DNA of 64,000 nucleotides from the NCBI GenBank assembly GCA_965215265.1, contig OZ244048.1, positions 3,232,001 through 3,296,000 on the forward strand, given 5' to 3'. Made by a program: the position numbers and the translations under genes. The stretch is from Candidatus Poribacteria bacterium. GTDB taxonomy: Bacteria > Poribacteria > WGA-4E > WGA-3G. Below, piece by piece: positions 31,752 through 50,205 of the stretch. Positions within the stretch are counted from its first letter, which is position 1. Each line of letters begins with the position of its first letter. A model generated the notes under the pieces. The model saw only the letters and a program-made list of their open reading frames with translations. It made no database searches and was not told the DNA's origin.

Positions 31752-32395
31752 GGTGAAACATCAAATACTCCAGATTCCGCCCTCGCTTTTTCAGCGTGTG
31801 GTGAGTGGCTTGCGGTTGGTAATACGGACGGTATTGTGAAAGTGTGGAACGTGAAGCGTGGCATCTGCGTCACTCAGACAGAACGTCTCCAGCGGGTAAG
31901 GCGAACCATCCAGTAACTTTGGTGTTGTGGTATGGTGCGATGGCATACTCGCAGTGGGTGGGTAAACGCCTGCCCACCGAGGCGGAGTGGGAAAAAGCGG
32001 TGCGGGGTGGGCAGGAAGGACTGAAGTACCCGTGGGGCGACACGATAACGCCTGATGACACGAACTATGATTTGAATGTAGGGGATACGATGCTAGTGGG
32101 GAGTTATGCGGCGAACGGATATGGGCTATATGACATGGCGGGCAACGTGTGGGAGTGGTGTCTGGACGAGTGGGAGCGGGATTTCTATTCTAAATCGCCG
32201 TCGAGTAATCCGTTGAGTGGTGTGTCTGGTAGTACGCTAGCGAATGTGTATGAGATTGCAAATCATTTTACAGAAGTTAAGTCCTCTCGCGTGTAGCGCG
32301 GCGGTAGCTGGTTCTCTGATAATCGCTACGGGCTTACTCCAACGTACGCGAGCGACTTCGGCGGGTTCCGGTGCACGAGGAGTGTAACGCCTTAA
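31752..32395 (+). pseudogene. Chimeric pseudogene: one WD40-repeat fragment joined out of frame to the C-terminal half of an FGE/sulfatase-modifying-factor (SUMF1) domain
   Basis: One frame gives '[25 protein letters not shown]'. Another gives '[22 protein letters not shown]', '[16 protein letters not shown]', then RV-[TAG]-RGGSW...GFRC, ending at TAA 32395. Confidence 0.8.
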
Positions 32396-46687: not shown

Positions 46688-46916
46688 CTGAGCACGAGCG
46701 ATAGCGGTTTGAATGAAACTAACGATTGGATAAGTTTTTAAGTCTTCTCAAATTTTGTGCGAGGTTGATGTCCCGCCTTGCTCAGAGACTTTCGTTCTTT
46801 TTAAGTTAAGCGGAGATTCAACTTGGAATCGAAAGTAGAATAAAAAAAATGAAATTGTGTATGAAATTGTGGTATAATATTGACTTAATTTTAGATTTAC
46901 TCAGGGGGAGTTAATT

Positions 46917-48509
46917 TTGAAAACAAGGGTTCTCGTGCACCGAGGAATTAGTGTCTTAGCACAGCTAACGATTTTGATGTGTTTCGTTTCTTTTATTGTC
47001 ATACCTGCAACTGCCCAGGTGAGTTACCACGAACAGATTGTCCCTATTCTCAAGCGAAGCTGCCAAGGGTGCCATCACCCTGGCGATGCGAATGGCGATC
47101 TGATTGTCACAACATACGCTGAGCTCAAGCGGGGCGGAATGGCTGGCGAAGCCTTGATACCGGGAAAACCGGATGAAAGTCTAATCATCAAGCTTATTTC
47201 GGGCGATGAGCCCGCGATGCCACAGAACCAAGAACCACTGTCTACTGAAGAAGTGACTCTGTTCCGGCAGTGGATTCTGGAGGGCGCGAACGACGACACT
47301 CCCGCAGAAACTGATGCCCTGGATGAAGGGAACTATCCGGTATACACAGTGCCCCCCGTTATTTCTGCGATGGCGTATTCTCCAGATGGCAGCACGTTGG
47401 CGGTATCTGGGTTCCGCGAAGTTCTATTGTATGATACAGAAACTTTTGAAATCAGCGCACGATTGGTGGGAAAATCGCATCGTATTGAATCGCTTACCTA
47501 TACAACCGATGGAAAAATTTTAGGTGTCGCTGGCGGTTCGCCAGCACAATTCGGCGAAGTGCAATTGTGGGATACTGGAACGAATACGCTCATCAAGGCG
47601 ATGCGTTCGAGCTACGATACCATCTACGGGCTCTCTTTTTCTCCTGATGGGAGTCGAGTTGCATTCGGATGTGCAGACCAAACTGTCCGCGTTCTCTCCG
47701 TTGAAGATGAGACAGAGTTAATTAAATTTGACAATCATAGCGACTGGGTATTCGGGACTATTTTTTCTACCGATGGTTCGCATTTCGTCAGTTGTGGGCG
47801 CGATACAGCTTTAAAGTTGGTTGAAGTAGAAACCGGGTCGTTTGTGGATGATATCAATTCCAGCAATAAAGGGTATGGGGAAATTAATACGCTTGCACGG
47901 CATCCAGCCGCCGACCAGGTGCTAAGCGGAGGAGAGGATAGAATTCCGAGACTCTACAAGATTTTCCGGGAAATCCGGCGGGACGTTGGAAACACAGACT
48001 TCAATCTCATCAAAGCCTACGAAGCGCAATCCGGTTCAATTGAGGCAGTCGCATTCTCGGGAGACGGGAAAAGTTTTGCTGTTGGAAATGCGGCAGGTGA
48101 AGTGCGCGTTTATGATGTAGAAACTGGAACGCGATTATCAACTATGTCCGGGGACACCGTTGGTGTATTTGCAGTAACTTTTCATCCAGATGGTACAAAA
48201 GTCGCCGCCGGTGGTTTCGACGGGAAGATTCGTATCTTTGATGCCGCTACCGGGAAACTTGTCAAAGCCTTTATAGCCGTACCAATCGAAGCCTCAGCAA
48301 CCCAAGACATGGCTTTGACGGTAAGCGGGATGACGTGAGGGGCTTGTGTCGTTAAAGTGCAGGATGCACTCTCAAATCTCCAACACGTTATCAACGTTGA
48401 GGTTTCGCTGCCTGATAAGGCAGTGATTCAGGTTCGGAAGAACGCCATCACCGAAAATGAGCTGGCCAACGTCATTAAAGCAGCTGGGTTTAACGTGCCT
48501 AGGAAGTAG
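46917..48509 (+). CDS. Secreted planctomycete-type cytochrome c + WD40 beta-propeller + C-terminal HMA domain, with a predicted selenocysteine at TGA 48336-48338
   Basis: Signal peptide; CQGCH heme motif and 'PAMP' Met ligand; WD40 repeats. Read-through gives LTVSGMT-U-GACVVKVQDALSNLQHVINVEVSLPDKAVIQVRKNAITENELANVIKAAGF, ending at TAG 48507-48509 (530 aa). Confidence 0.85.
48356..48370 (+). promoter_or_regulatory. Putative bacterial SECIS hairpin
   Basis: AGTGCA-GGA-TGCACT perfect stem; the G-first apical loop lies 23 nt after the in-frame UGA. Confidence 0.65.
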
Positions 48510-48640
48510 AACGCATCATACTGTTTAAGTAAAAATTTAATACGGTATGGATTGCAGGGCACTAACGAAGATGCCCGGCGGAATTTACTGCTTTAATCAA
48601 GAAGGGGTGCTGCTTAAATAGACGACGAGGAGCTCGTAGA

Positions 48641-48686
48641 TTGACGGGAAAAGGTATTGACGTGAGGTCAATACCTTACCCGTCAA
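48641..48686. repeat. Long inverted repeat related to the palindromic element family (possible terminator)
   Basis: ttgacggg-aaaaggtattgac-gtgag-gtcaatacctta-cccgtcaa. Confidence 0.7.
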
Positions 48687-48744
48687 CTGAACGAACATAA
48701 ACTGTTCAAACTTTCGTACGTACGTACATATAAAAGGCTAAATT

Positions 48745-50205
48745 ATGGCTGGTAAAACTCCAAATATCCTCTGGATTTGTACAGATCAGCAGCGTTACGA
48801 TACGATAGGCGTGCTCGGCAATTCCCACGTCTCAACACCGAATATCGATAGTCTGGTTGAAGAGGGCGTTGCCTTTACTCACGCATACTGCCAAAGTCCA
48901 ATATGTACGCCAAGTCGTGCCAGTTTTCTGACTGGTATGTATCCGAGTGCTGTCCATCTGAACGGCAATGGAAATGATTTCTTTCCGAGTACCTATCCCC
49001 TTGTAACTCGGACACTTGCTGATGCTGGGTACGATTGTGGGTTGATTGGGAAGCTACATCTTGCCAGTGCCTACCGGCGGATTGAGCCGCGAGCGGATGA
49101 CGGTTATCGGTATTGGCAATATAGCCACGCGCCGCGGGATGACTGGGAGGTTGGACATGATTATGCTGATTGGGTCCGTTCCAAAGGTTATATTCTCGGA
49201 GAATTGAATCGGGATGCCGCGGGTGTGCCCGCCGAGCTCCATCAAACAACGTGGTGCGCCGAAAAGACGATCGATTTTATACACGAGGAACGTGACGGAC
49301 CATGGCTAGCAAGTGTAAATATTTATGACCCGCATCCCCCCTTCAACCCCCCGCAAAGCCATAGAGAACGATTCAATCCGATCGAGATGCCTGCCCCGCT
49401 TTTCCAAGAGAGCGATCTGGAACAACAGAGACGATTGCAAAACGTCGATTTCCAATCATCCGGACGAACTCCGGACGAACTTGATATTCGGAATCCAATC
49501 TTACCAAAGCGCCCAGGAAGGCACTCATCCACAGAAATAGACTTAATGAGCGGAAGAGATGCACGAACCCTTAAAGCCGCCTATTATGCTATGATTCAAC
49601 TCCTTGATGAACAGATAGGAAGAATACTTGAAACCCTTAAGGAGACAGGTCAACGCGATAACACGCTTATCATCTTTACCAGCGATCACGGTGAAACCCT
49701 TGGTGACCACGGGCTAATTCAGAAAGGCTGTCGATTTTATGAGGGGCTTGTGCGTGTCCCGCTCATCTTCTCATATCCGGAGCAATTTGTCCAAGGCATG
49801 AAAAGCGATGCACTCGTTGAATTGACTGACAAAACCCCAACGTTATTGGAGTTAGTTGGACTTCCGGTGCCGGAAAATATGCACGGCCGTTCGCTACTCG
49901 CTATCCTACGTGGCGAGTCAAATCCGCACCACCATCGCGATTTTGTGCGATGCGAATACTATGATGCCCTTGATATGCCAAATCATACCTTCGCAACAAT
50001 GTACCGCGATAAGCGTTACAAATTAGTTGTGTATCACGGACACGAAGAAGGCGAGTTGTATGATTTAACCGAAGACCCGTGTGAGTTTGATAACTTATGG
50101 CACAGGGCGGAAAAGCAGAACGTCAAATACCAATTGTTGAAACGTAGTTTCGATGCCGCTATGTTTTGCATGGATAGGGGGCCTCGGCGAGTCGGTCCTA
50201 TGTGA
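48745..50205 (+). CDS. Formylglycine-dependent sulfatase
   Basis: 'PNILWICTDQQR', 'CTPSRASFLTG' (CxPxR), 'GKLH', 'PHPP', 'SDHG', 'ELYDL..DP.E'. Confidence 0.94.
   Translation: MAGKTPNILWICTDQQRYDTIGVLGNSHVSTPNIDSLVEEGVAFTHAYCQSPICTPSRASFLTGMYPSAVHLNGNGNDFFPSTYPLVTRTLADAGYDCGLIGKLHLASAYRRIEPRADDGYRYWQYSHAPRDDWEVGHDYADWVRSKGYILGELNRDAAGVPAELHQTTWCAEKTIDFIHEERDGPWLASVNIYDPHPPFNPPQSHRERFNPIEMPAPLFQESDLEQQRRLQNVDFQSSGRTPDELDIRNPILPKRPGRHSSTEIDLMSGRDARTLKAAYYAMIQLLDEQIGRILETLKETGQRDNTLIIFTSDHGETLGDHGLIQKGCRFYEGLVRVPLIFSYPEQFVQGMKSDALVELTDKTPTLLELVGLPVPENMHGRSLLAILRGESNPHHHRDFVRCEYYDALDMPNHTFATMYRDKRYKLVVYHGHEEGELYDLTEDPCEFDNLWHRAEKQNVKYQLLKRSFDAAMFCMDRGPRRVGPM

Follow-up and report, generated by a model that had tools for sequence, protein, structure and literature searches.

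A predicted poribacterial selenoprotein joining a haem c domain and a WD40 propeller to a selenocysteine-containing HMA domain

The stretch analysed here, referred to as the window, comprises 64,000 nucleotides (nt) of a Candidatus Poribacteria genome (assembly GCA_965215265.1, contig OZ244048.1, positions 3,232,001 to 3,296,000 of the forward strand), and carries a gene for a putative exported cytochrome c–WD40 protein whose reading frame continues beyond an in-frame TGA into an HMA domain. The open reading frame (ORF) that starts at TTG 46917 ends at TGA 48336-48338 and would give a 473-residue product; beyond it the frame runs on without a stop for another 56 codons, to TAG 48507-48509, and read-through gives 530 residues with selenocysteine (Sec, U) at position 474. 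An earlier note, made from the letters of this DNA, had placed the stop of the ORF at TGA 48336, at the first Cys of an HMA motif, and the codons GGG ATG ACG TGA GGG GCT TGT (G-M-T-U-G-A-C) confirm this; its further statement that the open codons up to TAG 48509 complete an HMA domain agrees with a Pfam PF00403 match that spans the TGA. The locus is read here as a single gene for a 530-residue exported selenoprotein, and not for a 473-residue WD40 protein, with a probability of roughly 0.87, and the decoding of UGA 48336-48338 as Sec is predicted from the sequence with marginally greater confidence. The features that make up the gene are as follows.

46917-48509, forward strand: full selenoprotein gene, 530 codons, predicted Sec at codon 474, stop TAG 48507-48509
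46917-47015, forward strand: predicted N-terminal export signal, residues 1-33, by inspection (basic start, hydrophobic core, A-T-A before Q34)
47061-47222, forward strand: PSCyt1 c-type cytochrome domain, residues 49-102 (Pfam PF07635, 37.5 bits, cut-off 22)
47061-47075, forward strand: haem motif C49-Q-G-C-H53 (CQGCH in 60 of 60 orthologs)
47364-48281, forward strand: seven-bladed WD40 beta-propeller, approximately residues 150-455 (Pfam WD40, 99.8 bits, cut-off 27)
48300-48494, forward strand: HMA domain, residues 462-526 (Pfam PF00403, 39.1 bits against 24.8; beta-alpha-beta-beta-alpha-beta)
48336-48338, forward strand: UGA as predicted Sec (U474), first ligand of GMT-U-GA-C, from the TGA/Cys comparison of orthologs
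48345-48347, forward strand: second ligand, C477, of the GMT-U-GA-C motif
48356-48370, forward strand: selenocysteine insertion sequence (SECIS)-type hairpin, stem A-GUGCA / UGCAC-U, triloop G48362-G48363-A48364

The TGA is not an assembly error, because contigs from four sequencing runs of four studies cover positions 48150-48600 in one piece and differ only at positions 48251, 48399, and 48502. Nor is the 56-codon tail open by chance, since totals of 57 and 252 stops were counted in its other two frames across 42 orthologs. The only internal start after the TGA is GTG 48357, which would yield a 50-residue piece devoid of strand 1 and the metal loop of the HMA domain.

Each part of the chain could be assigned to a recognizable fold. 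The Pfam HMA match itself covers residues 467-525 and straddles the TGA, and a sequence profile search of the PDB with this domain returned 45 HMA matches. The HMA domain was modelled alone from a 28-row alignment with Cys substituted for Sec, giving a mean predicted local distance difference test (pLDDT) score of 82.9 and the element order strand 8-14, helix 21-32, strand 37-43, strand 47-53, and helix 59-68, in which Sec is residue 20, located in the loop immediately before helix 1. The best PDB structures found by Foldseek are the CopZ-type copper protein 2l3m (template modelling (TM) score 0.81), CopZ 6ff2 (TM 0.81), and MerP 1osd (TM 0.82, root-mean-square deviation 1.7, 32% identity), and domains of ATP7A/B are also matched. 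The full-length AlphaFold model (mean pLDDT 77.8, predicted TM score 0.71) contains a single helix over residues 2-25, in the N-terminal signal region, a helical domain, the first helix of which leads into C49-Q-G-C-H53, 28 strands in keeping with seven blades of four strands each (residues 152-453), and the HMA domain at residues 462-526. Confidence is low for the cytochrome part, as expected of a model that lacks haem. Judged by eye and from the modelled N-terminal helix, residues 1-33 probably form an export signal, and three Cytochrom_C_asm genes for cytochrome c assembly score above the cut-off in the genome. The best Foldseek matches to the full model are seven-bladed propellers (7bie, TM 0.91 on the target, and 5yzv); the whole architecture was not found among the best 50 Foldseek rows, all of which align to the propeller only.

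The genome to which the window belongs, a single contig of 4.83 Mb, encodes the complete machinery for Sec insertion. The earlier note had named selA, selB, selD, and tRNA-Sec as the genes to look for, and all four are present: SelA is recognized with 588.6 bits, SelB with 336.5 bits over model positions 1-579 of 581, SelD with 359.6 bits and an in-frame TGA of its own, and tRNA-Sec, which lies directly downstream of selB, with 80 bits against a cut-off of 47 and an ARAGORN call of SeC(tca). SelA is found in 60 of 61 relatives, the lone miss being an 86%-complete draft. SelD is itself a predicted selenoprotein (…CAG-U-ASK…; L019:1450-2560, G000:C1:4044300-4045226, where G000 denotes the window's own genome), and its transcript can form a hairpin with a CGGGU loop and a 5-bp stem that begins 11 nt after the UGA, a spacing class unlike that of the HMA genes. 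TGA also acts as an ordinary stop in this genome: among 2,157 stop-to-stop frames of at least 300 codons, 472 are closed by TGA, 1,065 by TAA, and 620 by TAG, and the code is therefore not reassigned.

Conservation of the gene was assessed by six-frame searches, first of the 61 relatives and afterwards of 176 members of the phylum, with an ortholog threshold of E <= 1e-90, and an ortholog was found in 133 of the 176. In the host family (f1), 109 of 111 genomes, together with the window's own, give a full-length match with exactly one TGA, and the two genomes without one are draft assemblies (300 and 170 contigs). The codon was read directly in 37 genomes of f1, in four of family f4, and in G081 of family f3; it is TGA in all of them, within the motif GM[T/M]-U-x-x-C. 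A search of species-representative genomes, which partly overlap the phylum set, gave 80 loci, almost all in metagenome-assembled genomes of Candidatus or uncultured Poribacteria, with TGA in 80 of 80 (81 sites), and exactly 56 open codons follow the TGA in 77 of 79 sites. The earlier note had considered that this TGA might be private to one genome, with Cys in all close orthologs; instead, TGA occurs in every host-family ortholog examined, and Cys codons (TGC or TGT) replace it only in a sister family, in nine genomes, eight of genus g11 and one of g17. These Cys-form orthologs, among them those of G044 and G083, share the architecture (57-61% identity) and carry Cys where the window protein has Sec, in the motif GMT/S-C-x-x-C. 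A homolog search of protein databases with residues 450-530 only gave 27 candidates, none of them significant, and is uninformative about Cys forms. In nine further genomes (three of f4 genus g12, one of f3 genus g14, and five of family f8, which belongs to another order), the ortholog lacks the HMA domain and ends shortly past the propeller.

A maximum-likelihood tree of the cytochrome-propeller core (60 rows, none omitted, midpoint-rooted for drawing only) places the Sec forms in three clades, the Cys forms in two, and the HMA-less forms in three, and it contains a sister pair of one Sec form (G081) and one Cys form (G083) with support 99/94. This distribution over the tree shows that the TGA is old and maintained and that Sec and Cys have been interchanged more than once; as the tree is unrooted, it carries no direction for these changes. 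Two variants of the gene occur. The ortholog of G081 (L067, G081:C1:395700-399000) carries two tandem HMA domains at about 2168-2620, with GMTUGAC twice and a hairpin for each, which makes it a predicted double selenoprotein, and G010:C53 (L024:3484-4056) holds a partial second copy (residues 340-530, 73% identical, TGA included) about 440 nt downstream of the full copy.

The frame after the TGA is under purifying selection. The median ratio of nonsynonymous to synonymous substitution rates (dN/dS; Nei-Gojobori, 861 pairs of 42 sequences) is 0.137 for the 56 codons after the TGA against 0.113 for the 60 codons before it, and 0.130 after the TGA when the hairpin codons are removed. Because synonymous differences are near saturation, with a mean proportion (pS) of 0.64-0.71, the downstream conservation acts at the level of the protein; the conserved downstream frame for which the earlier note had called is thus found.

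Bacterial SECIS elements are defined as stem-loops located immediately 3' of the UGA, according to the accessible text of PMC9312934. In the window, the hairpin GUGCA-GGN-UGCAC has its core stem from 18 nt after the UGA, with one or two A-U pairs added; in all, a stem of 5-7 bp with a GGN loop starts 16-18 nt past the UGA. Synonymous variation was compared in 94 distinct Sec-form sequences over the 36 codons between -60 and +56 at which one degenerate amino acid occurs in at least 90% of sequences. The four codons with the least variation all lie in the hairpin region, namely +7 Val (GTG in 94 of 94), +8 Gln (CAG in 92 of 92), +6 Lys (AAA in 84 of 85), and +10 Ala (GCA in 92 of 94), and +11 Leu has the sixth lowest synonymous diversity, against a median of 0.50 for the other codons. 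Random sets of five codons were as low as the hairpin set once in 100,000 draws. As the codons are compared within the same sequences, relatedness does not explain why these are frozen. At the loop codon, the amino acid varies (Asp, Gly, Ala, Val), yet the first base is always G. The Gln is changed in two sequences: a Gln-to-Arg change in L136 (CAG to CGG) turns an A-U pair into G-U, and a CAG-to-CTG change in L141 opens one pair and retains the two loop G.

In the Cys forms, by contrast, the hairpin is weakened and lacks the two loop G. Their loop codon is AAC, AGC, ACT, or AGT, with A for the loop G; GCG replaces GCA in nine of nine, and the stem-breaking codons GTA and CAA occur in two and one of the nine, respectively. 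On average, the 21-nt segment folds at -7.40 kcal/mol in Sec forms (n = 43) and at -4.19 kcal/mol in Cys forms (n = 9). The motif GTGCAGGNTGCAC occurs six times in the genome, and three of these sites, which have no upstream TGA, were set aside as unrelated. A rule by which annotation could rescue such genes is GMT-TGA-xx-TGY followed by GTGCAGGNTGCAC 18 nt on.

The Sec-containing HMA module is not confined to this gene. A six-frame search of the genome found five HMA domains, two of them Cys forms (in frames of 756 and 73 residues) and three with an in-frame TGA; the latter are that of the window gene (34.2 bits) and those of two adjacent small genes (G000:C1:2909770-2910617). The small genes, L084:1276-1707 (143 residues) and L084:1770-2123 (117 residues), each encode a lipoprotein-type signal with a final Cys, together with an acidic linker and an HMA domain that carries GMT-U-GAC, and both have the same GUGCAGGCUGCAC hairpin at 18-nt spacing from the TGA. 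They score below all NCBIfam cut-offs. Of the 41 genomes in the order, 39 hold relatives, nearly always with one TGA; among them are families that have no fusion protein, as well as G044, in which the fusion protein is of the Cys type. The two genes probably represent a second unannotated selenoprotein family, and the Sec-HMA module is a lineage-wide building block, because their relatives span the order and reach families without the fusion. The Cys forms did not arise through loss of the Sec trait, since G044 keeps a small Sec-HMA gene and selA. Several further observations were made on these modules. A terminator-like hairpin lies behind each small Sec-HMA gene, and the next gene (L084:2506-2988) encodes a lipoprotein with an HMA-like start (…VTGMT-R-VTS…) in which both ligand positions are lost. 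Tandem arrays of four to six HMA domains, of which only some copies have TGA, were seen at G004:C1:39360-40421, G002:C1:1192428-1193570, G007:C1:3124238-3125161, and G009:C44:316696-317595.

Four further features flank the gene.

46849-46878, forward strand: promoter-like site with a TG-extended -10 (TATAAT) that matches the consensus at 10 of 12 positions, 39 nt before the start codon
46903-46910, forward strand: Shine-Dalgarno-like AGGGGGAG, 6 nt before TTG 46917, by direct reading of the sequence
48634-48690, no strand assigned: palindromic repeat element in the window's 235-nt spacer, fold of -37.6 kcal/mol
48745-50205, forward strand: Cys-type sulfatase with the formylglycine motif C-T-P-S-R (Pfam Sulfatase, PF00884, 164 bits)

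Promoter-like sites in this region are no more numerous than in shuffled sequences, and the one at 46849-46878 is a positional hint only. The upstream neighbours, an aroE-like gene and zapA, are found beside it only within the genus, and downstream the sulfatase is followed by a DNA methylase. Among 37 loci of the host family, the sulfatase was found in 33, always 3' of the gene and on the same strand. Spacer lengths at these 33 loci, extrapolated from tblastn starts, are 8-24 nt in 23, 75 nt in two, and 193-781 nt in eight, the window included. The sulfatase is likely an operon partner in the host family; it is absent from this position in families f3, f4, and f8. The spacer is short in relatives, and the palindrome in the window looks like a small repeated element inserted into it, with copies of 53-57 nt at 96-98% identity at G000:C1:4349754-4349806 and 723410-723466 and shorter partial matches at two more positions. 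In family f4 (L060 and L062, from G039 and G042), the next gene is not a sulfatase, and its product carries a second haem-type motif (…C-N-A-G-T-C-H-G…), which we take to be reminiscent of PSCyt2-type proteins. The genome contains 58 matches to the FGE-sulfatase domain (PF03781; FGE, formylglycine-generating enzyme), several as three tandem domains per frame, and a PF03781 match within the window, at 31829-32377, has an in-frame TAG.

As the earlier note had anticipated, standard annotation misses the C-terminal tail: all 120 database relatives listed, of 439-494 residues, end at the TGA and bear only the names 'hypothetical protein' or 'WD40 repeat protein'. Its claim that Sec-type HMA domains are known and their fusion to such a protein is not agrees with PMC9312934 and PMC13188914, as far as their accessible text goes, and with the NCBIfam models. 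Sec-type HMA domains have been catalogued in P-type ATPases and small metal-binding proteins, and what is new is the carrier, in which a signal peptide, a haem-c PSCyt1 domain, and a seven-bladed WD40 propeller precede the Sec-HMA domain. The literature search returned no paper on Sec-HMA fused to WD40 or PSCyt1, nor on poribacterial selenoproteins, though supplementary tables could list them. WD40 is unmentioned in the accessible text of PMC9312934, PMC13188914, and bioRxiv 10.1101/2022.07.06.499078, whose supplementary tables might list the family, Poribacteria are unmentioned in that of the latter two, and 'propeller' in that of PMC13188914.

The Sec-HMA P-type ATPases resemble the window protein in having Sec for the first Cys of GMxCxxC (UxxC), in being predicted from sequence, and in their link to soft metals; their domain, however, is the cytoplasmic N-terminus of a membrane pump, whereas here it would be the exported C-terminus of a protein without an ATPase domain, and the NCBIfam ATPase models (TIGR01525-type) match the window protein only through the HMA stretch. 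An HMA-type fold with Sec in the metal loop is likewise a feature of NF041115, 'UxxU metal-binding (seleno)protein', and NF045683, 'MerT/CopZ fusion-like heavy metal transport selenoprotein'. The window protein scores 37.8 against a cut-off of 95 for the former, which has UxxU in place of the UxxC seen here, and 15.6 against 375 for the latter, whose MerT part is lacking here. With MerP (TIGR02052; 1osd, 1afi) and CopZ (6ff2, 1cpz), the domain has the fold and the motif position in common (TM 0.82 and 0.81), and MerP is extracytoplasmic, as the domain would be here, but both are stand-alone two-Cys proteins of mer and cop operons, in contrast to the haem/propeller fusion with Sec described here. 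A mer- or cop-operon reading was rejected on scores (31 bits for MerP TIGR02052, cut-off 92.55) and on the neighbours (aroE-like, zapA, sulfatase, DNA methylase).

DUF1501 hydrolases and sulfatases belong to one alkaline-phosphatase superfamily. PSCyt1 proteins adjoining DUF1501 hydrolases have been described as an unexplained module of Planctomycetes–Verrucomicrobia–Chlamydiae (PVC) bacteria, and Kamneva et al. (2012) proposed that PSCyt proteins pass electrons to specific acceptors (accessible text of PMC3542564). The PSCyt1/PSCyt2/PSD1 and DUF1501 systems of Planctomycetes and Verrucomicrobia, as far as they are described there, share with the window a PSCyt1 haem-c protein, predicted to be exported in the case of the window, beside a hydrolase gene; they differ in that the window protein lacks PSCyt2 and PSD1, the partner is a sulfatase (PF00884) instead of DUF1501, the host belongs to Poribacteria, and the propeller and the Sec-HMA domain are additions. 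The term 'planctomycete-type' in the earlier note therefore holds for the name of the Pfam domain and fails for the host, which is Candidatus Poribacteria and not a planctomycete.

A mechanism can be proposed from these parts. SelB carrying Sec-tRNA(Sec) would bind the GUGCA-GGN-UGCAC hairpin with its two invariant loop G, so that Sec is inserted and termination does not occur. The protein would then be exported through the Sec secretion pathway and receive its haem at CQGCH, placing outside the cytoplasm a mono-haem c domain and a U-x-x-C soft-metal site held on a seven-bladed propeller scaffold. The selenolate/thiolate pair of the HMA domain may serve as a site for a thiophilic metal, binding Cu(I) or another such ion as the two Cys do in CopZ and MerP, and selenium would offer a deprotonated ligand that resists over-oxidation in an oxidising compartment. 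The haem may pass single electrons to or from the U/C site or its bound metal. Under selenium shortage, translation would end at the UGA and yield a cytochrome-propeller protein that extends as far as the natural HMA-less orthologs do. The function that we favour, soft-metal handling at the U/C site beside a haem outside the cytoplasm, is a tentative assignment with a chance somewhat below even. The haem-to-selenol coupling and the selenium-limited short isoform, both put forward in the earlier note, likewise stay conditional; the short isoform is plausible because natural orthologs end right after the propeller.

Several observations weigh against this account. Six of the nine Cys-form hairpins still fold at -5.4 to -6.6 kcal/mol, and the hairpin is thus weakened in them and not abolished; moreover, the contrast between Sec and Cys forms is drawn from few independent lineages, as eight of the nine Cys forms belong to one genus. 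No covariation was found in the hairpin: pairing in its upper helix reaches 97.1% over 84 distinct sequences, and shuffled controls did as well in 287 of 500 cases, a test that is uninformative because the stem hardly varies. RNAalifold and pair counting recover the hairpin, again without covariation above controls, and a candidate lower helix (TGTGT/ACACA) was rejected, being only 77.9% paired. A plain fold of 48330-48400 is no stabler than shuffles (z = -0.65), although so small a hairpin is beyond what such a test can judge. Compared with the selD of the same genome, the loop is set about 4 nt farther from the UGA, so that the spacing is not classical, and no Rfam family matches the hairpin, with only chance matches to miRNA and snoRNA families at E <= 10. 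The protein falls below the cut-off of every named CopZ, MerP, and Sec-HMA model in NCBIfam, and the functional assignment draws on domain identities and nothing else. A direct physical link between the sulfatase and the exported protein is weakened, since the sulfatase has no evident signal peptide.

If the TGA were a true stop, the product would be the 473-residue cytochrome-propeller protein, and the HMA stretch a decaying remnant or a separate small ORF. Gene callers do end all of the listed relatives at this codon, HMA-less orthologs exist in nine genomes, and TGA is a common stop in the genome. A remnant, however, would not keep a dN/dS of 0.137 over 56 codons near synonymous saturation, nor leave precisely 56 codons open at 77 of 79 sites; the codon is TGA, and never another stop, in every family genome with a full-length match; and a separate ORF would have only GTG 48357 as its start, whose 50 residues omit strand 1 and the metal loop. 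Termination as the sole outcome is thus very improbable. Equally remote is read-through with a residue other than Sec, whether by a reassigned code (TGA as Trp or Gly) or by near-cognate or suppressor decoding. The inserted residue cannot be named from sequence alone, which leaves room for such decoding, but code reassignment was rejected on stop usage: TGA closes 472 of the 2,157 long frames, and it occurs once in the 530-codon gene and not at all within selA and selB. Against any non-Sec decoding stand the alternation of this position with Cys alone, which is the signature of Sec, the full Sec machinery, and a constrained hairpin at the expected SelB site.

The main rival to soft-metal handling accepts Sec and concerns function only: U-x-x-C might form a redox-active selenenylsulfide engaged in haem-fed chemistry of the thiol-disulfide type, with the HMA fold as a mere scaffold. 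Most bacterial selenoproteins carry Sec in redox motifs of the UxxC or CxxU kind (accessible text of PMC9312934), the presence of haem c within one chain with it points to electron transfer, and electron transfer to specific acceptors is what has been proposed for PSCyt proteins (accessible text of PMC3542564). The motif GMT-x-x-x-C, the fold, and the position of Sec just before helix 1 are nevertheless traits of metal-binding HMA domains; the best sequence and fold matches are all binders of copper or mercury, and the Sec-HMA families catalogued in the accessible sources are all tied to metal transport. Pure redox chemistry is accordingly regarded as unlikely, though the strongest competitor. 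Less likely still is that the UGA acts as a selenium-dependent switch between a long and a short form, both of them functional, a notion that would add to the favoured explanation instead of replacing it. The short product would end about 20 residues past the last blade, as do the HMA-less orthologs of three clades, and the domain has been lost or gained repeatedly, even to the point of two Sec-HMA domains in G081; on the other hand, the Cys forms cannot switch and yet persist in nine genomes that use Sec elsewhere (for example G044, with its small Sec-HMA gene and selA).

A bolder extension of soft-metal handling connects the protein with sulfatase activation. FGE is a Cu(I) enzyme, according to the accessible text of PMC5324649, and the protein might be a selenium-dependent, extracytoplasmic, copper-handling redox module that supplies Cu(I) to the FGEs that activate the sulfatases of the symbiont: the haem c domain would reduce Cu(II) to Cu(I), the Sec/Cys site would capture the Cu(I), and the propeller would dock the client. 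The suggestion derives from the position of the gene, mostly 8-24 nt upstream of a sulfatase, from the 58 FGE-sulfatase matches, and from the order-wide occurrence of Sec-HMA, and we regard it as a speculative and improbable scheme. If true, it would mean that selenium, copper, and the foraging of sulfated glycans are coupled in sponge symbionts.

The finding brings to light a selenoprotein family that is conserved and specific to the phylum, and whose members are cut short in all public gene calls examined. It offers no new principle, and its value lies with specialists on selenoproteins and on sponge symbionts. A selenolate metal site beside a haem outside the cytoplasm, as predicted here, is unmatched among the Sec-HMA families in the accessible text of PMC9312934 and PMC13188914. 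Poribacteria use the Sec-HMA module on several carriers, namely the cytochrome-propeller protein, small lipoproteins, and tandem arrays, and for sponge symbionts the family may provide a testable link between selenium supply, soft-metal handling, and an expanded repertoire of sulfatases and FGEs.

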